64,000 bases of DNA from a virus, in the IMG/VR virus record IMGVR_UViG_3300045988_046531, one strand, 5' to 3'. How positions within the stretch are numbered: the stretch's first letter is position 1; the number at the start of each line of letters is the position of its first letter. The notes under the pieces were generated by a model. That model saw only the letters and a program-made list of their open reading frames with translations. It searched no databases and was not told where the DNA came from. A program made the translations under genes and the position numbers. This document shows positions 674 to 21,855 of the stretch, piece by piece.

Positions 674-852
674 CTTCTGTCAATAATTTAGTTGCCTTAT
701 CCATTCCTAACTCGTAAGCTTCAGCAATTAATACTGCCGCACTTGCTATAGAAAGCTTACCACCGTTGTCCTCTGCTACGTTAGCTGCACTTTCAAGTAG
801 CTCACTCAAAGTTTCTACCATAATTAAATACATTTAATAGTTAATAATCTAG

Positions 853-934
853 TAGGGTAGGTGAGACTCGAACTCACACGCCCGAAGGCACTTGGGCCTA
901 AACCAAGCCTGTCTGCCAATTCCAGCACTACCCC
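853..934 (-). tRNA. tRNA-Leu(UAG), class II with long variable arm
   Basis: Reverse complement folds as cloverleaf: acceptor GGGGTAG/CTACCCT, anticodon stem CTTGG/CCAAG with loop TTTAGGC, T-loop TTCGAGT. Confidence 0.7.
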
Positions 935-1204
935 ATTGTTACTTCATCAAATTGATAAATTCATCTTCATGTCCTCTATAGTATCGCTGAAGATATGCAA
1001 TATACACGGCTTCGTCCTTAACTATTTGAGGGAATTTGGATTCAAATTGTTCTACTTTCTCTTCTCCTACTATACTTACATGAAAGTCTCTAGGTGTGTT
1101 ATCCACCTTAGTTGCAGACATTAATAAGACTAATAGGAATATCAATAAATGTCTCATTTAGTTGTTAATAAAAGGAGAGCGAGATTACTCCCGCCCTCCA
1201 AGGT

Positions 1205-2662
1205 TTATTTGTTGTCCTTCTTCTCCGTAGAGTAGTCCTTACGGTCAAGGTCCCACTGATACTCACACATCTGAGTGATTGCTTCAAGCTTCTCTGTACC
1301 CAGAACGAGTTTGAGAGCATTTACCAATCTTTCAGCCGGAGTTTCCACAACAGCTTTCTTGGATGCAAGTCCAAGTTGACGTTGATAAGATTCAACGCTA
1401 GCTTTGATATGGAACGATGTTACATGGGTTTCTTCTGTAAAGATAAGTTTGGATTTGGTTGATTCAACGATTTCAGCCATAAATGCCGGAGCAATTTCAG
1501 CTTCTTGAATGTAGTTACATACTTCACTCAAATCATCGTCGATTGTATATCCTTCTTCAGCGGTGAAGGTAGAACGGATGAATTTCTCCGCAGTTTCAGC
1601 GTCCAGACAGTCCATGGTAATCACAGAGCCGATTCTTTTACCTCTTAAGAAGGTAGGTTCAATCAATTCAATGTGATTAGTAGTGAACAAGGTGATTACG
1701 TTCATGTCTTTGGTATCACCACCGTCCAGAGTATTCAGGATGTCCTGCATAGCAGCATCTCTGTTACCTCTAGTTACTTGGTCAATATCTTCAACAAATA
1801 CAACAACACCATGACCCGAACGGTCAACAACTTTACACATGCGCAGAGTTTCTGCAAGAAGAGAAGGATTCTTCAAATACACGAATGACCAGCCGTTTGT
1901 TACAGCATCTTTAGCCAGCTTAAATGCCAGCAAGGTCTTACCTGTACCATATTTACCTTCCAGCAAACAACCATACTTCAATGGAATACCTTTAGCCAGA
2001 CATTTCTCTGGATACAAGATTCTTGAGCGTAGCGGTTGCAATTCAAATTCAGTCTTCTTAGAAAGAACCATGAATTGTTTCTCAATGCCGGCAAGTGTCA
2101 TGATAGTAGGTTCAGACAGATTGCTGATTTCCAGTGCTTGATTCTTGTAGATAGACTCCGATGCTAACAGCTCTTTAGTTCTGTCAACAATATCATCAAT
2201 CAATGACTGGTATTTGAACTGGCATTGTCCTTTAATAAGGAGCAAATGACGGTCATTGTCATAGTTGATGTTGATTTCAGAATCTTCTCCCAATTCTTCA
2301 AGGCTGATTTTACCAAACGGAACCTTGGTACGAGAACCGTCTGCCAGAACAACGTCTACGGTATCAATATTGCTGTTTCCAGAAGGACTGTTATCCTCCT
2401 TACTAACGGCAGAACCGAAGATTTCATTGATTGCTCTGTTCAACTGATATACACCGTCCGGTTTCCAACAAAGCAGCGAGTATTTGAAACTTGCCATTTT
2501 CTTGGACTGTTTGATTTCACCTTCGATGAATCCCAGAGCATCAGCATACTTCACGTTGCTTTGGAGCACTTCAATCATTCTCTGTTTCTGAGTTTCCTCG
2601 TACTTGTTAACTCTCTGCTTAATAGCAGCTGTAGTTCCTTGCGGAATAATGTTCTTTGCCAT
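1205..2662 (-). CDS. classic AAA+ ATPase (Walker A GKYGTGKTLL, Walker B VVVFVEDID, second region of homology TTNHIELIEPTFLRGKR)
   Basis: Motifs read directly from the 485-aa translation; an about 230-aa N-terminal domain of unknown function precedes the AAA core. Confidence 0.75.
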   Translation of the reverse strand: MAKNIIPQGTTAAIKQRVNKYEETQKQRMIEVLQSNVKYADALGFIEGEIKQSKKMASFKYSLLCWKPDGVYQLNRAINEIFGSAVSKEDNSPSGNSNIDTVDVVLADGSRTKVPFGKISLEELGEDSEININYDNDRHLLLIKGQCQFKYQSLIDDIVDRTKELLASESIYKNQALEISNLSEPTIMTLAGIEKQFMVLSKKTEFELQPLRSRILYPEKCLAKGIPLKYGCLLEGKYGTGKTLLAFKLAKDAVTNGWSFVYLKNPSLLAETLRMCKVVDRSGHGVVVFVEDIDQVTRGNRDAAMQDILNTLDGGDTKDMNVITLFTTNHIELIEPTFLRGKRIGSVITMDCLDAETAEKFIRSTFTAEEGYTIDDDLSEVCNYIQEAEIAPAFMAEIVESTKSKLIFTEETHVTSFHIKASVESYQRQLGLASKKAVVETPAERLVNALKLVLGTEKLEAITQMCEYQWDLDRKDYSTEKKDNK

Positions 2663-2665
2663 TAC

Positions 2666-2938
2666 TTAATTAGGTTTATTAATCTTATTTACTTCTTTAA
2701 TGATTGCCTCACAATTCTCTCTTGTTGTAGTTAAACAACCAAGTTGAATAATAGAACCGTCTTGAGTGATAGTCAGGTTCTTCTCTTCGATTGTTTCCCT
2801 ACATAGACCTCCTCTGATAATTCTTTTAATGAGTGGAAAGGGTAATATAGTATTCTTACAGAATATCATATTCTTGCCTTCCACATAAATGACATCGTAG
2901 CCGTCAATGCTACCTACTACCTTACTCATTCGATTCAA
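2666..2938 (-). CDS. hypothetical protein
   Basis: 90-aa ORF tightly packed downstream of the AAA+ gene on the same strand. Confidence 0.35.
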   Translation of the reverse strand: MNRMSKVVGSIDGYDVIYVEGKNMIFCKNTILPFPLIKRIIRGGLCRETIEEKNLTITQDGSIIQLGCLTTTRENCEAIIKEVNKINKPN

Positions 2939-2950
2939 CTATTAACTGTG

Positions 2951-3024
2951 TGGGCCCGGCCGGACTTGAACCGACAACCTCCTGATTATGAGTCAGTTTC
3001 TCTAACCGATTGAGATACGGGCCC
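2951..3024 (-). tRNA. tRNA-Met/fMet/Ile2 (CAU)
   Basis: Acceptor GGGCCCG/CGGGCCC, U8A9, D-stem TCTC/GAGA, anticodon loop CTCATAA, T-loop TTCAAGT. Confidence 0.7.
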
Positions 3025-3121
3025 CGAACGCCCATGTTTACTCACAATTAACAGTTCTCAAAGAGTAGTGTTGTTAGTGACTTCATGATAAATTCTATTT
3101 TAAACTGAAATAATTAGTAGT

Positions 3122-3193
3122 TGGGCTACCAGGACTCGAACCTGGGCTACAAGAGCCAAAACCTTGTGACACCATAGCCCAGTAAAAGGAGTC
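3122..3193 (-). tRNA. tRNA-like element, probably truncated or defective (good T-arm and acceptor pairing, but only about 29 nt between acceptor and T-stem, so no D-arm; anticodon-like UUG)
   Basis: T-loop TTCGAGT flanked by CCAGG/CCTGG; acceptor TGGGCTA/TAGCCCA; spacing too short for a canonical tRNA. Confidence 0.3.
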
Positions 3194-3202
3194 CGAAGAC
3201 TC

Positions 3203-4270
3203 CTAAACTAACTTATCGAATATCATGGGCTGTATCGACATCCATAAATTTGCTAGCATTTCTCGCTCTGCGTCAGATGCTTCATCCCAATGTGATACGT
3301 ACAATTTCTCCGTTCGTTCATTCCTATAAGGAACCTTAAATGAACGGTTAATGCGTACACTGTGTGCGAATAGGTCTTTGTCGAAATCAATAGCCCTAAG
3401 CGTCTTCTGGAAATCGTTGAACTTATTATTAGGGTCATCGACATCCCTAACAGACATTCCAGAAGGAAACGGGCCGTTACCATGCCTTGTTATATAAGGA
3501 CGAGTTACATAACAAGTTTGGATTTCTTTACGTATACCTGCTTTCCGCAACAGCTCGTAAGCGTTTTGTGAAGTTGTATTAGACGGAGTACAATAAGGCA
3601 TTATGCCGAATCTTTGGTCAAGCAATATTCCCTGTGAACCTTCAAACACTAGGTTGTCATAGTTTAACAAGCAATCTTCATTAACCGTACCTGTATGTAA
3701 GAAATAAGCATGTGCTAACCTACACCAGTTGTCTAGGTCTATCGAAGGATATTTACTAGACATGTTGTAATAGTTATCCACTATGGCATTTAGTTTCTCA
3801 CGCAGTATGTAAGGATTCATACAATCTACAACTGTTAAGCTGTATCCTGCCTTAACTCGGTCCAAACAAGCTTTAAACCCTGTACCTACAGTACCATGTC
3901 GTAAGTTCTCTTCGTTATTAACTTGGGAATAGACATCGAAGGGAATTACAACTTGGCAGTGAGGGTGATACTGAACAATGGGATGAACTCCCATTTTAGC
4001 TAAGTCTGCACCCTCCAACATAGAGGTAATTGGGTCTACAGTACAGTATTCGGACCAGTACGTCGGCACTCCAAGTAAGGTTCCGCTGCCAAAGTTACTA
4101 AAGGTATGCATCATGTCTCCATGCTTTACAGTATGTCCTACTTGATGTCCACCACTAAACCTGACTACTAATACAGACTCTCGCTTACCTATGTACTTGT
4201 TACATAAGTTGTGAACTGTCTGTCCCTTACCTTCGTCTCCAAAGAATGTTCCTAATACAATACTAATCAT
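3203..4270 (-). CDS. adenylosuccinate synthetase (PurA) family protein, short form (355 aa), consistent with phage PurZ (N6-succino-2-amino-2'-deoxyadenylate synthase)
   Basis: N-terminal VLGTFFGDEGKGQ matches the PurA P-loop GxxWGDEGKGK; VTRPYITRHGNGPFPSG matches the PurA R-x-Y-x-TR-x-G-x-GPFP motif; the length is archaeal-PurA/PurZ-like rather than bacterial PurA (about 430 aa). Confidence 0.75.
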   Translation of the reverse strand: MISIVLGTFFGDEGKGQTVHNLCNKYIGKRESVLVVRFSGGHQVGHTVKHGDMMHTFSNFGSGTLLGVPTYWSEYCTVDPITSMLEGADLAKMGVHPIVQYHPHCQVVIPFDVYSQVNNEENLRHGTVGTGFKACLDRVKAGYSLTVVDCMNPYILREKLNAIVDNYYNMSSKYPSIDLDNWCRLAHAYFLHTGTVNEDCLLNYDNLVFEGSQGILLDQRFGIMPYCTPSNTTSQNAYELLRKAGIRKEIQTCYVTRPYITRHGNGPFPSGMSVRDVDDPNNKFNDFQKTLRAIDFDKDLFAHSVRINRSFKVPYRNERTEKLYVSHWDEASDAEREMLANLWMSIQPMIFDKLV

Positions 4271-4276
4271 TTCAGT

Positions 4277-5209
4277 TTAATAAAATTTGTCATTACTATC
4301 AGACGGCACATCTTGCCATTCCTGACTAACAGAAGCACTAGGAGCTAAGCCTTCAACAGGCTCCTCATAGTTCTCTTTAATTGCGGTGACAATCACCTTG
4401 TCTACTTCTCCAGATGTACATGTCAATACATTCTGTCCAAGTAAAGTCTTCCAAGATTCAGCAACCCTTGAGCCATGACTGGCATTAGTAATGTGAATGT
4501 GGAATACATGGTACTGTTCCTTTGCTTTGTCAAGAGCTTCTTGACAAGTAATGGTTTTAGCACCTTTTTGATACCCTAGAACACGTTCTAAGTAACATCC
4601 CTCTACCTTATCGAGATTTGGTTCATCTCCAATAGTAAATAAGAATCCCTTAGTGTGTCTTTCAAACCAGGAATCAGTTTCAGTATGATAACCCGCTACG
4701 ATGTGAGATAGTAGATAGCTTTCACCTCTATTACCTCCTCCTCCACCTTCAATCACGAATGACTGTAAAGTGTCAAGGATTTTAGCTGTATCAGACTCAA
4801 ACTGACCAATTTGAATTGGATATCGGTCATAAACGTGGTCCCCAACTGCCATAAACATGATTTGTGGGTCACGCACACCTAGTTGAATGAGAGAGTCCAT
4901 AATCTTAGGGAATTGGTCTCTAATCATTTCATAAGGTGTGTCCATCATTGAACCAGTAACGTCTAGCGCAATGATTATCGGAGTAGAGAAAGGATGTTCT
5001 TTAGAATCACGAGATTCACGAACACCCACGTTAACCATTTCTTGCCTTATCTGCGTGTTATACTGCCTAACATTGTTGTTAAGCGATGCAGCAGTATTAC
5101 ATGCATTAATGGCATGGCTCTTAAAGAGTTCATCCCTAGTGGAGGTATATAAACCCCTACTGCCGGCCTCTACATCATAAGCAATTCTAGAATAACTACC
5201 TGCTCCCAT
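4277..5209 (-). CDS. von Willebrand factor A (vWA) domain protein with a MIDAS-like DxTGS motif
   Basis: IIIALDVTGSM ... GGGGGNRGESY in the translation; no other domain recognised. Confidence 0.5.
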   Translation of the reverse strand: MGAGSYSRIAYDVEAGSRGLYTSTRDELFKSHAINACNTAASLNNNVRQYNTQIRQEMVNVGVRESRDSKEHPFSTPIIIALDVTGSMMDTPYEMIRDQFPKIMDSLIQLGVRDPQIMFMAVGDHVYDRYPIQIGQFESDTAKILDTLQSFVIEGGGGGNRGESYLLSHIVAGYHTETDSWFERHTKGFLFTIGDEPNLDKVEGCYLERVLGYQKGAKTITCQEALDKAKEQYHVFHIHITNASHGSRVAESWKTLLGQNVLTCTSGEVDKVIVTAIKENYEEPVEGLAPSASVSQEWQDVPSDSNDKFY

Positions 5210-5212
5210 AAA

Positions 5213-5581
5213 TTATTCATTTACAGTTGCAGCAGCGTCATCCAAATTAATGGATTCTGATGCATCAGCGGGAAATTCTTCTGCATCGACTTGCATAGCT
5301 AGAGCAAGTTCAATCTTTGCAACACGCAGTTTACGTGCCAATTCATGTCTTGTTCTTACCCATTCAGCCGGATTCAGTCCTTCTCCCGGATTCAAAGAGT
5401 CTCTTGATTTAACAGCCAGGTCATTGTGTTTGTTGATTTCTCCCTGAATGCGGAGTACTTTCAATTTACAATCCTGAACAAATCTGTCTTCCTCGATTTT
5501 AGCCAATTCATACAGATTCTGCGCTCTTGCATCAAGTACACTTTGTCCACTCTTACTTAATTTCTCTTTAAAACTGCTCAT
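5213..5581 (-). CDS. hypothetical protein (predicted coiled-coil)
   Basis: 122-aa ORF, charged and helical composition. Confidence 0.35.
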   Translation of the reverse strand: MSSFKEKLSKSGQSVLDARAQNLYELAKIEEDRFVQDCKLKVLRIQGEINKHNDLAVKSRDSLNPGEGLNPAEWVRTRHELARKLRVAKIELALAMQVDAEEFPADASESINLDDAAATVNE

Positions 5582-5668
5582 TTACACTTACATTTAACAT
5601 GTTAAATTCAATAAGCATCTCTGTGTGGTAATTTATAATCTAACTGTAATCATCTAGGATTACAATCG

Positions 5669-5741
5669 AGCCACCTTAGGGACTCGAACCCTAAACAGCC
5701 GCATTACAAGTGCGGTACTCTACCAATTGAGTTAAGGTGGC
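5669..5741 (-). tRNA. tRNA-Thr(UGU)
   Basis: Acceptor GCCACCT/AGGTGGC, D-arm ACTC..GAGT, anticodon stem CCGCA/TGCGG with loop CTTGTAA, T-loop TTCGAGT. Confidence 0.75.
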
Positions 5742-5799
5742 ATAAACAGGAGACGATGTTACCAAGTGTGCTGACATCTCCTTTGTAAATCAAAGAAAG

Positions 5800-5872
5800 C
5801 GGTGCATACGGGATTCAAACCCGTGGTCTCCTCATAGACAGTGAGGCATCCTAATCACTGAACGAATGCACC
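5800..5872 (-). tRNA. tRNA-Asp(GUC)
   Basis: Acceptor GGTGCAT/ATGCACC, anticodon stem CCTCA/TGAGG with loop CTGTCTA, T-loop TTTGAAT. Confidence 0.65.
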
Positions 5873-6140
5873 ATGAAGCTTGCTTAACCTACCCTCTAAA
5901 CCTATGCTTGGACTTGCAATCAGTTATTCAGGTATTGTCCCTTCCCGCTAGCTGAGTCATTCTCTTACTGTAACCGTGTGTCCAACTCACAATTACTATT
6001 CAGATGTGCCAAATGGGACATGGCAATTCATAGAAAGTGGGTGCTAGCTACCGTCTAAGCTTCCATCCCTTACGTTGCCTTAGAGTGTACATGATTATTA
6101 TTGCCTAACCAGTTACCTGATTGGAAGGATTATGTACGAG

Positions 6141-6214
6141 GTACTGCCAACGGGATTCGAACCCGTATTTTCAGTGTGAGAGACTGATTACCTAACCCTT
6201 AGTAGATAGCAGTA
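6141..6214 (-). tRNA. tRNA, probably Glu(CUC)
   Basis: Acceptor TACTGCT/GGCAGTA, anticodon stem TCAGT/ACTGA with loop CTCTCAC, T-loop TTCGAAT; the D-arm is irregular. Confidence 0.55.
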
Positions 6215-6485
6215 TGTTAAATAGTCGTGAGTAGTTAATTGCAACTATGACAAAATTAAGATTAAAGTCAAAGACCAGCCTATTGCTATCTAGGGCAAAG
6301 TCAAAGGAATTTTGTAACTTCGCAATAGACTGACAGGGTTTGAATTAATAATACTTAATTATGCTGGAAATCGTCCCTGTATGAAATACAGAACACGATT
6401 AATTTGTCGACTAGAGTCTTTGATGCAATTCATACTACTCACGCAAAGCTATGTTAGAATCCAATGAGATTCAAGACTATAGCAC

Positions 6486-7379
6486 CTATTTATCTGGATT
6501 GGAAATCTTAGTTAGCAATTCATAAGTTGCTTGTAACTCATTAGGAATTACTATCTTAAGTTCCAATAGTTTCTTACGTTCTTCAACTTTCCAAGTTTCA
6601 CATTGTTGAGACAGGGTTTTGGCATCCAAATTGAATCTATCAACAGCTTGTTTATAAGCCTGATTGACTTCATATTCAGAATCCTTTACCATTTTATCAA
6701 TCTTAAACTTAATCTTATTAAGTCTGGCTGATATGTCTCTGTGTTTCTGCTGTAATGCAAAGAATGTATTCTCTACCTTATCGCTACTAACAGACGGGTC
6801 ATACGAGTACACGATTGTGTCAGTACCAGAACCTTCAACTTTAGTAGGATTAGTATAGGCATCCATTAAAGCTCTACGGGCATTTGCAAACGGACGCATC
6901 GGATGAATATACTTACCAATGGCAGATGCTTCTGCTTCTAGTCTGTAATATTCCATACGTTCTGCAATGCTCAATGAAGCAATTGCTTCCTCTTCGGTAA
7001 GGATATGACCCTTAATCGGGGTGTCCAACTTGAATCCAGCTACGTCTGTAGCATATAAATCCCATGTGTACCTGTTAATAATTTCAAGTTCTTCTTCTCT
7101 AGCCTTAATAGCTTCACGAATCCATGCACAGAAGGCATTCATATTAGCAACTTCTTGAAGTAATGTGGGCACATTATCAAGATATGCCTCATTTCTACCT
7201 GTCTTCACAGTCCTAGAGTTACCTCCACTTAGCAAGCTAATATTGACATTCACAAACCCTACAGAATCTAAAGCTTGTCTATTAGATTCTACTGTTTCCT
7301 TAGCTATATTAGCCAGGTGATTGGCAGAAGTTTGGGTTAGTCCCTTCTCGCCAAAGAATACTTTGTTACATTCTTTCAT
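6486..7379 (-). CDS. hypothetical protein
   Basis: 297-aa ORF with no recognised motif. Confidence 0.4.
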   Translation of the reverse strand: MKECNKVFFGEKGLTQTSANHLANIAKETVESNRQALDSVGFVNVNISLLSGGNSRTVKTGRNEAYLDNVPTLLQEVANMNAFCAWIREAIKAREEELEIINRYTWDLYATDVAGFKLDTPIKGHILTEEEAIASLSIAERMEYYRLEAEASAIGKYIHPMRPFANARRALMDAYTNPTKVEGSGTDTIVYSYDPSVSSDKVENTFFALQQKHRDISARLNKIKFKIDKMVKDSEYEVNQAYKQAVDRFNLDAKTLSQQCETWKVEERKKLLELKIVIPNELQATYELLTKISNPDK

Positions 7380-7408
7380 AAGCTGTAATTATTAATTCAT
7401 TACTAATG

Positions 7409-7481
7409 CACTGGATAGGGGATTCGAACCCCTGTTTACGCATAGAAAGTGCGTCGACCTAAACCACTAGTCGAATCCAGT
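7409..7481 (-). tRNA. tRNA-Glu(UUC)
   Basis: Acceptor ACTGGAT/ATCCAGT, anticodon stem ACGCA/TGCGT with loop CTTTCTA, T-loop TTCGAAT. Confidence 0.7.
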
Positions 7482-7489
7482 ATACCTTA

Positions 7490-7777
7490 TTAAGCCTTCC
7501 AGAATACAAACTTATTGCCTTCTGGACATCTTACATACTTCACATCAAAACCATTCTCTCGATATAGAGGTTCTACATCTAACCAATGGTTCTTAATTAC
7601 TTCTTCTTCAGTTAGACCTTCAGATGCTACATAGGCTATTACATCTGATTGCTTAAATTCAGAAGCTTTACCACTCCAGTTCTTAACTATTAAAGTATTA
7701 AAAGCTAAGATAACTGCATCAGGAATAGATTTTAAATCTATACTCCTCAATTCTCTTGAATTTAATACCTTCACCAT
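7490..7777 (-). CDS. hypothetical protein
   Basis: 95-aa ORF. Confidence 0.35.
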   Translation of the reverse strand: MVKVLNSRELRSIDLKSIPDAVILAFNTLIVKNWSGKASEFKQSDVIAYVASEGLTEEEVIKNHWLDVEPLYRENGFDVKYVRCPEGNKFVFWKA

Positions 7778-7829
7778 AATTCTAATAATTAGGTTAATAA
7801 TGATTTTCGCAAACTCTTATTAGCCAGCG

Positions 7830-7917
7830 CGGAGAGTGCTGGATTCGAACCAGCGGAACCCTTTTGAGGTTCGGTCCCTTAGCAGGGGACTGGTTTAAGC
7901 CACTCACCCAACTCTCC
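7830..7917 (-). tRNA. tRNA-Ser(GCU), class II
   Basis: 88 nt; acceptor GGAGAGT/ACTCTCC, anticodon stem GTCCC/GGGAC with loop CTGCTAA, long variable arm, T-loop TTCGAAT. Confidence 0.75.
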
Positions 7918-8004
7918 AATCCACAGAAGACTTATTTATGCTATATCAATCGCTTATGATTACCTCAATGCTGTAAGTCTTCTTAGAAATTCACTGTAAA
8001 AGGA

Positions 8005-9966
8005 TTACTTTACAGGAGGAAAATTATCACCTTTAGCTGGTGATTCTTCTGGCTTCTTGCCAGTGATTATTTGCTTAAGCGAATCTGCAATAGGCAAATT
8101 ACGGGCAATTTCCAAACTCGGAGCAAGATTCTTAGCCATATTAGCCATGAACTGTCCAGCAGTGTTGGAATCACCATACACAGTAACATTACCAAGCTGG
8201 ATATGTTCAAATACCTTAGCGTTGGCTTCAGCAACTTCCTTCCACCTGTCGGTCATTGCATATTGAACGATTGCTTCAGGATGCATACCTGATTTAATCA
8301 TATGTTCAACTGCAAGAGCCGGAGCCATTTCCATTGCCTGTTTCTGTTCAGCTTCTGCCATTAAAGATGCTTTCTTACCTTCAGCTTCGGCAAGAAGTTT
8401 CTTCTTAGTACCTTCAGCTTCTGCTTCCAGTTGCATCTTAGTAGCATTTGCTTTAGCTTCTGCTGCTTTCAAGATTTTAGCTGCTTCCGCTTCTGCTTCA
8501 AGAATGGCTACACTCTTAACAGCTTCTGCTTCAATCTTAGCTTTCTCTTTGGCCTTCTCGGCAGGTATAATCACTTCGGCTTTAAGCTTAGCTTCTTCAG
8601 CTTTAGCTTTAGCTTCATTAACTTCTACCTGACGTTCCTGCTCTGTTTTAGCAACTGCCATTTGAGCTTCAACTTTGGAAGTACCAGCTACTCTTTCAGC
8701 TTCAGCTTTAGCTTTCTCTGCTTCTCCCTTAGCTTTGGAAACTTCAATAGTAGCTTTCTGTTCAGCTACTCCTGCTGCTTTCTCTGCTTCAGCTGCCTTT
8801 TGACGGGCTTCTGATTCATACTGTGCAGTTTTAGCTTCTTTCTCCTGCTGTGCTTTAACAGTTTCAGCTTCTTGGTTTTGTGCTGCTACTGCCATACGAA
8901 CTTCCTTCTCTGCTTCTGCTTCTGCCTTAGCGGCTTCAGCTTTGGCAGTAAATTCTGCTTCTTTAGCAGTTGCATAAGCTTGCTGCTCTGCAATCTTGGC
9001 AGCTCTCAATGCTTCTTGCTCGGCAACTTTGGAAGCTTCTTCAGTTTGGGCTGTAGCCACACCAATTTCACGTTCCTTTCTTTGCTCTGCAACAGCAATT
9101 TGTTGTTCCTTATGCTGCTCGGCCAATTGAGTTTCTTTCTCTTTAGTGGTCTTAGCAATAGCAACTTCTTTCTCCCTGTTAGTTTCAGCCACTATAGTTT
9201 CTTGCTCCTTAGTAGCTGCTGCAATTGCAATCTCCTTCTCTCTCGTAGTTTGAGCTATCTGGATTGCTCCTTTCTTCTCTTCTTCTGCGATATCAGCTTG
9301 TGATTGCGCTCTTGCTTTAGTCTCTTCTTTCTTACCAAGATTATCAATATATTGAGCAGCATCTTGAATGTCACTGATATTGATATTCATCAGATAAAGA
9401 CCAAGTTTGTTCAATTCCGTATTGATATTGTCTCTAGCTTGAGCTAGGAACTTGTCTCTGTCAGAGTTAAGCTCTTCAATAGTCATCGAAGCAATAACAA
9501 GCCTCATCTGACCATAAACAATATCTGAAATCAAACTTTCTTTAACGTCATCATCAGCACCTAGTAAGCGATTAGCAGCATTCTGCATAATCAGCGGTTC
9601 TTGGCTAATAGCAACAGTTACAGTGGTAGGGATAGTTACACGAATATTTTGAGCTGACAAAGCATTCTTCAATACAAGATTCAATTGAATCGGCTGCATT
9701 GACATTACTTCATAACCCTGTATAATCGGCCATACAAAAGCTGCACCACCATGATAAACTTTGGCAGTTTTAATTTCAACTTCTCTGTCAACCAGATTAC
9801 CTTTAGCGTCGCGTTCACTAACTTTCTCTTTGTGAGAGCCTGTTTTACCATAAACTACCAACAATTCGTCAGATTTACATTTACGGTAGCGGGATAGAAT
9901 CCCAATGATAGTGATGATTGCAACTAGTACAACTACACCAACGATAATTAATGATGTCATTTCCAT
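8005..9966 (-). CDS. flotillin (SPFH/band-7 domain plus EA-rich flotillin coiled-coil repeats), FloT/YuaG-like
   Basis: N-terminal TM helix, SPFH region, then long Glu/Ala/Lys-rich repeats (KEKEIAIAAATKEQE..., EAEAEAAKILKAAEAKANATKMQLEAEAEG) typical of the flotillin C-terminal domain. Confidence 0.8.
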   Translation of the reverse strand: MEMTSLIIVGVVVLVAIITIIGILSRYRKCKSDELLVVYGKTGSHKEKVSERDAKGNLVDREVEIKTAKVYHGGAAFVWPIIQGYEVMSMQPIQLNLVLKNALSAQNIRVTIPTTVTVAISQEPLIMQNAANRLLGADDDVKESLISDIVYGQMRLVIASMTIEELNSDRDKFLAQARDNINTELNKLGLYLMNINISDIQDAAQYIDNLGKKEETKARAQSQADIAEEEKKGAIQIAQTTREKEIAIAAATKEQETIVAETNREKEVAIAKTTKEKETQLAEQHKEQQIAVAEQRKEREIGVATAQTEEASKVAEQEALRAAKIAEQQAYATAKEAEFTAKAEAAKAEAEAEKEVRMAVAAQNQEAETVKAQQEKEAKTAQYESEARQKAAEAEKAAGVAEQKATIEVSKAKGEAEKAKAEAERVAGTSKVEAQMAVAKTEQERQVEVNEAKAKAEEAKLKAEVIIPAEKAKEKAKIEAEAVKSVAILEAEAEAAKILKAAEAKANATKMQLEAEAEGTKKKLLAEAEGKKASLMAEAEQKQAMEMAPALAVEHMIKSGMHPEAIVQYAMTDRWKEVAEANAKVFEHIQLGNVTVYGDSNTAGQFMANMAKNLAPSLEIARNLPIADSLKQIITGKKPEESPAKGDNFPPVK

Positions 9967-9979
9967 CTTGAAATTAGTA

Positions 9980-18844: not shown

Positions 18845-19185
18845 CTCTTTGTTTAAATTTATTGTTATGAGAGTCTTTCTTTATTCTAAACAATAAACAA
18901 GCGGCATTACGGCAATCGGACATACGTTAACCCGCTCGCCACTTACAGACCGTAATGCACACTTGACCAGGCAGGAAAGAGGTTTGCTTGGTTACCTGCC
19001 CCACAATATTGATTTGCATAGTGGGGCTACGAGGATTCTCTCTACTCGTGATGCTATAAATCGTCTTTTGACGCAAGCACAGGTTTCAACTCTTTAATAT
19101 AGCCTTTAAGTCACAGATGCATTCTAGACTACATCTGCTGGTTCTTCAGACCAAGTTTGCTACCACTACTCGTCAATAGTGGATT

Positions 19186-20711: not shown

Positions 20712-21254
20712 TGGACCTAGGCGGAGTCGAACCGCCGTCCAAACAACCCTCATTAATAAGATTACGTGTGTCTCTATTTTATTACATCAGCTGTTGAGTT
20801 CAGCATGTAGGTAGTTTTACTAGTCTTATCTTGGAACCAGGTAATTAGGCTGCAATAGCCAAACCAGTACACCAAAAGCTAATTTACAAACTACCAAACT
20901 TAAAGGTTCAAAAGCTGACGCTTCCAAACCTGGGCTGACCGAAGTCGCTCTTCCACCACTCCATTTACGTTGGAGAACGTTTCTATTTGTAACCCATAGA
21001 TAGGTAGTGGAGATTTCAGCTTTACTAACCTTTGGCTTTCAAGTTAAGTGGGCTGCTCTATACGCTTCTTCCCACACCTCTTCTGTTTCTAGGTCTCTCC
21101 AATTAACCCGACTTAGAGCTAAATTAATAGATAAGCCAGCAGCTTAGGCTGCCATTCTTACTTCAGTGTTTCCACTTAAATTTGTGTATCATTATTAAAG
21201 AGTTGGTACGAACTCTACACGTCTTACTAACTTGTAATCGCCTGTCAAAGCCAA
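20712..21254 (-). ncRNA. ssrA: tmRNA (SsrA), 543 nt, with candidate tag reading frame ...G-N-T-E-V-R-M-A-A-stop
   Basis: 5' end GGGCCTAGATTTGGCTTTGACAGGCG matches the E. coli tmRNA 5' end GGGGCTGATTCTGGATTCGACGGG. 3' end GGACGGCGGTTCGACTCCGCCTAGGTCCA matches GGACGCGGGTTCAACTCCCGCCAGCTCCACCA. Acceptor GGGCCTA/TAGGTCC keeps the G3-U70 alanine identity pair. An internal ORF ends GCA GCC TAA (Ala-Ala-stop) about 95 nt from the 5' end. The 650-nt region has no protein ORF. Confidence 0.75.
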
Positions 21255-21351
21255 ATCTAGGCCCATAGAACGGCACGATTATACTCTCGTGCCACATTGA
21301 GTGGCGTACCCATTATGGACTTGGCAGCTTACGAGTTATTTTTTGTTCCAT

Positions 21352-21705: not shown

Positions 21706-21787
21706 AAATTTACTAATTAAAAGCCCAAGTGTGTTTCACAACATGACTGGGGCAAGCCTAAACTATACAAAACTTTAAAATGATTGG

Positions 21788-21855
21788 GAGAGGATGGGAG
21801 ATTCGAACTCCCGCCACTAGTAACAACTAGCCTTCTACCATTGAACTAATCCTCT
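21788..21855 (-). tRNA. short (68 nt) tRNA-like gene with an abnormal anticodon arm (stem CTAG/CTAG with a 6-nt loop TTGTTA); function uncertain
   Basis: Acceptor AGAGGAT/ATCCTCT, U8A9, D-arm GTTC-AATGGTA-GAAG, T-arm GGGAG-TTCGAAT-CTCCC are canonical; the anticodon loop is too short. Confidence 0.35.

Follow-up and report, generated by a model that had tools for sequence, protein, structure and literature searches.

The 64,000-nt stretch of viral DNA held in IMG/VR as record IMGVR_UViG_3300045988_046531, here called the window, very probably encodes a functional transfer-messenger RNA (tmRNA), the product of an ssrA gene, and one that is considerably longer than its bacterial counterparts. 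On the minus strand of the window, positions 21264 to 20709 are recognized by the Rfam tmRNA model RF00023 with a score of 86.3 bits, where the gathering score is 47 (E = 4.5e-32), and the match spans the entire model (positions 1–374). A local Rfam search at a permissive threshold returned the same match (E = 5.6e-34). This bears out an original prediction, made without database searches, which had proposed a phage tmRNA at this place and had named the Rfam covariance model as one means to verify it. The gene, as delimited by RF00023, the pairing of the acceptor strands and the comparison with the family of 79 sequences described below, occupies 20712–21264 and measures 553 nt from G1 (21264) to the discriminator A (20712), or 556 nt if one includes the CUA found at the position of the CCA. 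These three bases directly follow the discriminator, and the CCA is thus not encoded. The prediction had placed the gene at 20712–21254, with a length of 543 nt and no strand named; its lower boundary is exactly the discriminator, but the upper one falls 10 nt short and would lose the 5′ acceptor strand, since GGGCCUA lies at 21258–21264. The region contains no open reading frame (ORF) of 60 or more amino acids between 20662 and 21352, only chance ORFs of 41–46 amino acids, again as had been stated. The order of elements within the gene is the standard one, in one piece and without an intron. A permuted, two-piece form was rejected on account of this order and of the 16.6 bits obtained for RF04321 (gathering score 47), the sole other Rfam match at the locus.

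Relatives were collected from IMG/VR using exact-pattern scans for the T-arm and three internal blocks, followed by nhmmer. This resulted in 94 phage loci with full-length copies, equivalent to 79 distinct sequences (the window included) with lengths of 507–601 nt, carried on viral contigs of 45–270 kb. GenBank holds one full-length relative, MT837398.1, which originates from human faeces. All eight relatives tested with Rfam pass the gathering score (69–86 bits). The excess length that had been remarked upon is, therefore, real and typical of the lineage. When an internal block that is invariant was used to scan one genome for each of 185,579 species, only two true relatives were recovered, both on phage-like contigs (29.8 kb and 130 kb) inside metagenome-assembled genomes (MAGs); the long type is, therefore, phage-borne rather than a chromosomal ssrA of bacteria. 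The two MAG-binned contigs, L090 and L092, are labeled “uncultured Clostridium sp.” and “uncultured Muribaculaceae bacterium” (the 130-kb contig), respectively, and are probably phage contigs that were mis-binned or co-binned; the Muribaculaceae label of L092 provides a weak hint as to the host. Taken together, the long tmRNAs constitute a previously undescribed phage lineage, approximately 180 nt above the usual length. The T-arm pattern also retrieved six IMG/VR contigs (L034, L048, L049, L055, L060, and L083) with standard tmRNAs of 310–446 nt and other tags, such as GNKTISFARTAFMAAA and GENMPLQEAA, as well as some 30 more contigs with permuted tmRNAs; these may be either phage genes or host sequences that flank prophages.

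The tRNA-like domain possesses a 7-bp acceptor stem in which GGGCCUA (21258–21264) pairs with UAGGUCC (20713–20719; 20712–20719 with the discriminator A). The Rfam alignment places the alanine identity pair, G3:U70, in this stem, and it is present in 79/79 sequences. Positions 4–7 covary, giving six variants: GGGCCUA/UAGGUCC, GGGCUUG/CAAGUCC, GGGCCUG/CAGGUCC, GGGCCAU/AUGGUCC, GGGGAUG/CAUCUCC, and GGGCCUU/AAGGUCC. The T-arm, GGCGG-UUCGACU-CCGCC (20720–20736; Rfam alignment), is intact with an uninterrupted T-loop, and at three of the five pairs of its stem the relatives have GC, AU, or CG. Both tRNA-like ends and the G3:U70 pair thus stand as predicted. A D-loop analogue, GAUUUGGCUUUGAC (21244–21257), aligns with high posterior to the Rfam consensus, and its UGG.UUUGAC is near-invariant among the relatives; the domain has neither a D stem nor an anticodon arm. 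The connector helix H2 is formed by a 5′ strand at 21217–21243 and a 3′ strand at 20741–20769, the pairing of which was predicted by RNAalifold and, for the 3′ strand, is also seen in the Rfam alignment. Many of its 28 predicted pairs have both sides changed, including a 9–10-bp segment with 5–6 compensatory pairs. Since covariation among the relatives links the two acceptor strands, and likewise the strands of H2, the two tRNA-like halves are parts of one molecule and do not derive from separate elements, an eventuality that the prediction had itself raised.

The messenger part begins with a pseudoknot, PK1 (21185–21216; Rfam alignment), with a stem 1 of 6 bp (AGAGUU/AACUCU) and a stem 2 of 3+2 bp, in which the loop sequence GUA(C)C pairs with a downstream G(A)UAC. 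For the stem-2 pair 57–78, 31 sequences have U-A and 13 have C-G; PK1 is shortened in 35/79 relatives. It is followed by a single-stranded leader (21174–21184) ending in UAAGU, in which U(−5) and A(−4) correspond to U85 and A86 of E. coli. These two bases set the reading frame of the E. coli tmRNA and are experimentally critical (PMC2481249). A(−4) is found in 79/79 and U(−5) in 76/79 sequences, and the pentanucleotide that precedes the resume codon is UAAGU, UAAAU, UAACU, or closely similar to these. The tag frame, located by the Rfam alignment at 21144–21173, reads GGA AAC ACU GAA GUA AGA AUG GCA GCC UAA (GNTEVRMAA and stop), congruent with the internal frame ending R-M-A-A-stop that had been noticed earlier. 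It is open in 79/79 sequences, with 9–11 codons, Gly or Ala as the first residue, and an RMAA end in nearly all of the 19 variants, among them GNTEVRMAA, AEIAPVRMAA, ATYSEVRMAA, and AERSDYRMAA. The stop codon, which is UAA or UGA and never UAG in the 79 relatives, lies in the loop of hairpin H5, GCAGC-CUAA-GCUGC (21139–21152), where 100% of the cells are paired and two pairs are compensatory. The MAA end of the predicted tag resembles known SsrA degrons, and it also occurs in other tmRNAs of the same IMG/VR scan. The native Bacteroides tag is GETNYALAA (bioRxiv 10.1101/2025.03.18.644028), which is similar to the phage tag in length and in its Ala-Ala end and otherwise different. Every element of sequence and structure known to be needed for trans-translation, from alanine charging and ribosome entry to frame selection, translation of the tag, and termination, is present; compensatory and synonymous substitutions keep these elements in 79 distinct phage relatives, and they are under purifying selection.

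ARAGORN, the program named first for verification, called no tmRNA in the window. This is a false negative: the program calls a tmRNA in only 3/94 family loci, and in these cases with the wrong tag. The miss reflects a limit of the tool and does not count against the gene.

Two segments are of ordinary size, the one that extends from the 5′ end to H5 inclusive (127 nt) and the one from the H2 3′ strand to the end (58 nt), so that all the excess length resides between them, in a lineage-specific expanded 3′ domain of 368 nt (20770–21137; tmRNA positions 128–495). This domain occupies the place of PK2–PK4, and within it the Rfam model fails to align blocks of 112, 67, and 112 nt, which it treats as insertions. 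Its helices were proposed by hand and eye and assessed in 34 representatives of less than 90% identity by counting pairs against 500 shuffles. In the observed alignment 89.2% of the cells are paired as against 84.5% in the shuffled ones, and 24 pairs have changed on both sides as against 12.2; none of the 500 shuffles reaches either observed value. Slid controls gave 29–45% pairing. Layered RNAalifold, in which the first layer was masked to expose pseudoknot stems, returned none, and for this reason the pseudoknots were proposed by eye combined with pair counting.

The best-supported of these is PKx, a compact H-type pseudoknot (20959–20980) with ACGU/ACGU as stem 1 and CUCCA/UGGAG as stem 2, and with compensatory changes in both. 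Its stems are rebuilt in the divergent relatives L146, L158, and L093; for instance, L146 has CACC/GGUG and CUAUU/AAUAG, and stem 1 of L093 is AGUU/AACU. Downstream of PKx lies a near-invariant region (20932–20958) consisting of the purine block GGUGGA(A/G), the hairpin Hh (GAC-UUCG-GUC), in which 3/3 pairs are compensatory, and AGCCC. A pairing partner was sought for the near-invariant GGUGGAG and none was found. Upstream, and separated from PKx by the variable cassette V1 (20981–21008), is conserved core 1 (21009–21109), in which a helix b/b′ (GGAGA, 21096–21100, with UCUCC, 21009–21013; four of five pairs compensatory) encloses the hairpins Hd (21076–21094), He (21048–21075), and Hf′ (21027–21037), the latter two of which covary. 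Within the same core GGGUUAA (21103–21109) has two candidate partners, UUAACUU (21041–21047), which would generate a pseudoknot with b/b′, and AGCCC (20932–20936). Thus, where three further pseudoknots are expected, the 3′ domain presents one that is well supported (PKx), one that is possible (a/a′ with b/b′), and several hairpins. Pseudoknot number is known to vary among tmRNAs (PMC3985003). The suggestion that the additional length might represent extra pseudoknot insertions therefore holds for at least one well-supported pseudoknot, whereas the rest of the 368-nt domain is made up of conserved core blocks and exchangeable hairpin cassettes.

The remaining elements of the domain are hairpins and cassettes. 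The hairpin Ha (GGCUUA...UAAGUC; 21110–21137) shows three compensatory pairs and a variable apical part, the stem being GGCACAU/AUGUGUC in L146. Cassette V1 measures 28 nt here and up to approximately 63 nt in relatives; it comprises at least seven sequence types, which reassort with the other cassettes, and by manual reading the other types fold differently. An optional hairpin of 30–31 nt, GGUUUGGAAGC-GUCA-GCUUUUGAACC (20900–20930), has a 12-bp stem and GUUUGG direct repeats at its flanks; it is lacking in 65 sequences, present once in 13 (including the window), and present twice in one. The helix GGUAGUUU/AAACUACC (20810–20895), which is found in all relatives with GC, GU, and AU variation, surrounds cassette V3, 70 nt in size here and represented by at least 13 types. 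The terminal hairpin UACAUGCUG...CAGCUGAUGUA (20783–20809) was predicted by RNAalifold and contains one compensatory pair (UA in 18, CG in 6, and AU in 1), with a conservation of 0.92.

Column conservation reveals that no part of the RNA is better conserved than PKx with the adjacent GGUGGAG block (0.92). Core 3 (tmRNA positions 443–495) stands at 0.92, core 2 at 0.90, and core 1 at 0.84. The tRNA-like parts show 0.79–0.83, and cassettes V1 and V3 0.56 and 0.47, respectively. The combinations of V1 and V3 pass the four-gamete test, which points to exchange of these cassettes by recombination between phage lineages, and the cassettes account for the length range of the family. In summary of the domain, the additional 180 nt result from a 368-nt structure, specific to this lineage, that takes the place of the PK2–PK4 ring, and not from an intron or a foreign insertion. 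One may speculate, although we consider it rather improbable, that the 3′ domain is a phage-specific functional module beyond a scaffold, acting either as a factor-binding platform that retargets or regulates trans-translation or as a means of escape from host nucleases aimed at tRNA-like RNAs; if true, this would be a tmRNA with an added virus-specific activity.

The carrier is apparently a human-gut phage that is distantly crAss-like. The window encodes portal, large terminase, and tail-fibre genes, and the terminase is 28–30% identical to those of Crassvirales, that is Bacteroides phages and human-gut “cr” phages. With the terminase of MT835470.1, an unannotated human faecal phage scaffold of 117 kb, it shares 99% identity. 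The scaffold and the window (35857–64000) have the structural-gene half in common at 89–98% identity; the scaffold ends before the half with the tRNA and tmRNA genes.

With regard to expression and function, the tmRNA is probably excised from a longer minus-strand transcript, as the neighboring phage tRNAs would be. A C directly follows the discriminator in the tmRNA and in 19/19 of the window tRNA genes that were checked, only one of which has CCA. The common tRNA trailers are CAT, CTT, CAA, CAC, and CTC, that of the tmRNA is CTA, and those of its relatives likewise begin with C. These common trailers, with C but without CCA, suggest common 3′ processing followed by CCA addition. A host enzyme would then supply the CCA, the host alanyl-tRNA synthetase would charge the RNA, and host SmpB and EF-Tu would bind it; no smpB gene was found in the window by tblastn with E. 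coli SmpB, so that host factors are presumably used. The charged molecule would enter ribosomes stalled on truncated mRNAs and append A-GNTEVRMAA to the nascent chain, and translation would end at UAA with the ribosome set free. What the phage might gain is ribosome-rescue capacity during infection, parallel to that conferred by the adjoining tRNA array.

Several points weigh against reading the locus as a functional tmRNA of this kind. There is no significant match to SmpB, as judged by tblastn with a single E. coli query against the 64-kb window, MT835470.1, and the first 87 loci. Canonical PK2–PK4 are not identifiable by homology in the RF00023 alignment, the stem 2 of PK1 is short, and the invariant GGGUU fits its two candidate partners equally well (92.4% and 93.8% paired), all changes being one-sided. 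The assignment of a host is based solely on the crAss-like terminase similarity and one contig binned with a Muribaculaceae MAG; furthermore, the Bacteroides tag GETNYALAA differs, and RMAA is only a putative degron in the presumed host.

The original prediction had mentioned the tmRNA together with a suppressor tRNA, which implies a link between the two. About 22 tRNA genes lie downstream of the tmRNA at 852–16986, on the minus strand like it, in line with the roughly 20 and the suppressor that had been announced; one, at 14794–14866 and on the shared strand some 6 kb from the tmRNA, has the anticodon CUA. The tmRNA could accordingly serve amber suppression: tRNA(CUA) would cause readthrough of UAG to the 3′ ends of mRNAs, and the tmRNA would rescue the ribosomes. 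Nonsense suppressor tRNAs are known to make more trans-translation necessary (Ueda et al. 2002, as cited in PMC3985003), UAG never ends the tag in the 79 relatives, and TAG is a rare stop codon, terminating 3/44 long ORFs of the window. Against this, the long ORFs of the window can be read without recoding of TAG or TGA, and none of them requires an in-frame TAG. Within the fetched flanks tRNA(CUA) occurs in 5/94 family loci (3/47 among loci of at least 10 kb), and one family locus with 25 tRNAs lacks it. As so few loci carry the suppressor, its presence is sporadic while the tmRNA is lineage-wide; the link is weak, and the explanation must be viewed as unlikely.

Less probable still is that the RNA is a decoy or inhibitor, which titrates host SmpB or competes with the host tmRNA in the manner proposed for the tmRNA of mycobacteriophage DS6A, which consists of the tRNA-like domain (TLD) only. 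A TLD-only phage tmRNA has been reported, and a similar molecule inhibits the endogenous tmRNA in E. coli (PMC4131195, PMC11915505); the failure to find a phage smpB and a tag unlike that of Bacteroides would also fit. The DS6A molecule, though equally phage-borne, is without tag and pseudoknots and is thought to be an inhibitor, whereas the RNA of the window has a full, conserved tag module. Synonymous and compensatory changes preserve its tag frame, the context of its resume codon, its H5, and its stop codon, elements that would be superfluous in a pure decoy.

It is very improbable that the length is caused by an intervening sequence, be it a group I intron or a mobile insertion, which the mature RNA no longer contains. 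For the 2025 tmRNA database, size (500 bp) and bit-score cut-offs jointly served to exclude all non-intron forms, the smallest known intron form being 545 bp (PMC11915505), and the 30–31-nt module with its flanking direct repeats does behave like a small insertion. Intron-containing tmRNA genes likewise exceed 500 bp, but their group I intron sits in the T-loop. In the present case the T-loop, UUCGACU, the only known intron site, is uninterrupted, and no Rfam intron family matches at E ≤ 1; the group I and other intron forms were rejected on these grounds. The extra RNA is instead found between H5 and H2, is conserved as part of the molecule, and includes its most conserved blocks, and relatives without the 31-nt module still measure 507–562 nt.

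The least credible possibility, that this is not a phage gene proper but an attP or integration remnant of a host tmRNA, a pseudogene, or a chimera of two tRNA-like pieces, derives some plausibility from the many temperate phages that integrate into ssrA and carry away its 3′ end and from the many contigs of the first scan that matched the last 20–55 nt only, but is contradicted by a full-length copy with both halves covarying, by 94 loci on large viral contigs, by the lack of a permutation signal, and by internal blocks that, apart from the two phage-like contigs mentioned above, are essentially absent from bacterial chromosomes. The form of an attP or 3′-ssrA fragment was rejected for the same reasons, the gene being full length and its internal blocks being those of phages.

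The interpretation as a functional, phage-encoded tmRNA invites comparison with known systems. Bacterial one-piece SsrA RNAs, such as those of E. coli and Bacteroides, have in common with it the domain with G3:U70, the T-arm, H2, PK1, the U/A frame-setting bases, a resume codon starting with G, a tag of 9–11 amino acids ending in Ala-Ala, the stop codon in the H5 loop, and the standard gene order. The phage RNA differs in its length of 553 nt, compared with the 374 positions of the Rfam consensus, and in the replacement of PK2–PK4 by the 368-nt domain, with core blocks whose conservation exceeds that of the tRNA-like domain. The bacterial PK2–PK4 are variable and dispensable in vitro (PMC3985003). 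Furthermore, its tag ends in RMAA rather than ALAA, its gene is located on phage genomes, and the CCA is not encoded.

Earlier reports of phage tmRNAs concern eight mycobacteriophages, Bacillus phage G, DS6A (TLD only), and huge phages (PMC4131195, PMC7162821). The RNA described here is like those of the mycobacteriophages (Bxz1, Cali, Catera, and others), phage G, and the huge phages in that a complete ssrA is found on a large lytic phage with many tRNA genes; it is unlike them with respect to the phage group, which is distantly crAss-like, and the host phylum, which is presumably Bacteroidota. Some huge phages encode SmpB (PMC7162821); none was seen for the window phage. The other phage tmRNAs of the same IMG/VR scan, at 310–446 nt, are detectable with ARAGORN, whereas in this lineage of 507–601 nt almost none is called. 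A literature search retrieved no paper on a tmRNA in Crassvirales, probably because surveys based upon ARAGORN miss the lineage; this program was the detector in the huge-phage study (PMC7162821) and in Pharokka-based virome surveys. To regard the tmRNAs of this lineage as the longest without an intron is to rely on the statement of a 500-bp cut-off (PMC11915505) and on the length of the Rfam model, and not on a full census. Genes of this kind are thus already known from phages; the novelty lies in the group of phages and the presumed phylum of their host, in the length class, and in the enlarged and strongly conserved 3′ domain.

The finding adds a large tmRNA lineage to phages, apparently those of the human gut with a distant relation to crAss-like phages; public viral contigs contain no fewer than 94 loci of it, with 79 distinct sequences. 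Since ARAGORN, which is built into common phage pipelines, misses nearly all of them and mis-calls the tags, surveys of tmRNA-carrying phages are biased. The lineage also offers a system in which to study the role of the region equivalent to PK2–PK4 and the reasons for which lytic phages devote resources to ribosome rescue.

The tmRNA gene is flanked by two co-directional small ORFs; a Pfam search of the ORFs neighboring it gave no matches, and a scan for sigma-70 promoters and terminators beside it produced nothing above chance. A hairpin, GGCACGA-GAGUAUAA-UCGUGCC (21272–21295, minus strand), is situated 8 nt upstream of the 5′ end of the tmRNA. Relatives exhibit a compensating stem, GUGCAG/CUGCAC, with the loop unchanged, and one subgroup lacks the hairpin, which might act as a signal for processing or for transcription. 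The motif in its loop, GAGTATAA, is not enriched in the window. Proximity to tRNA arrays is common in the family, the tmRNA adjoining such an array in 81/94 loci.

Some peculiarities of the tRNA complement deserve mention. A tRNA-like gene at 21785–21855 (minus strand), 520 nt upstream of the tmRNA, scores 49.8 bits with the Rfam tRNA model; ARAGORN could assign no anticodon to it, the size of its anticodon loop looks abnormal, and it is the sole tRNA-like gene of the window with an encoded CCA. The tRNA at 16421–16491 (minus strand) was matched by Rfam (44.8 bits) and missed by ARAGORN. ARAGORN also made two overlapping calls on opposite strands, Arg(TCG) at 7814–7890 (plus) and Ser(GCT) at 7829–7917 (minus), both of which are below the Rfam tRNA gathering score. 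Lastly, a RAGATH-34 RNA (19076–19182, minus strand) was identified with 120.6 bits (gathering score 60.7) directly upstream of an ORF of 564 amino acids (17150–18844, minus strand). The sole match of this ORF is PHROG 850 (“RNA-binding protein”), Pfam and PDB sequence searches being without a match. The same order is kept in the relative L062, where the tmRNA is followed by RAGATH-34 approximately 1.4 kb downstream.

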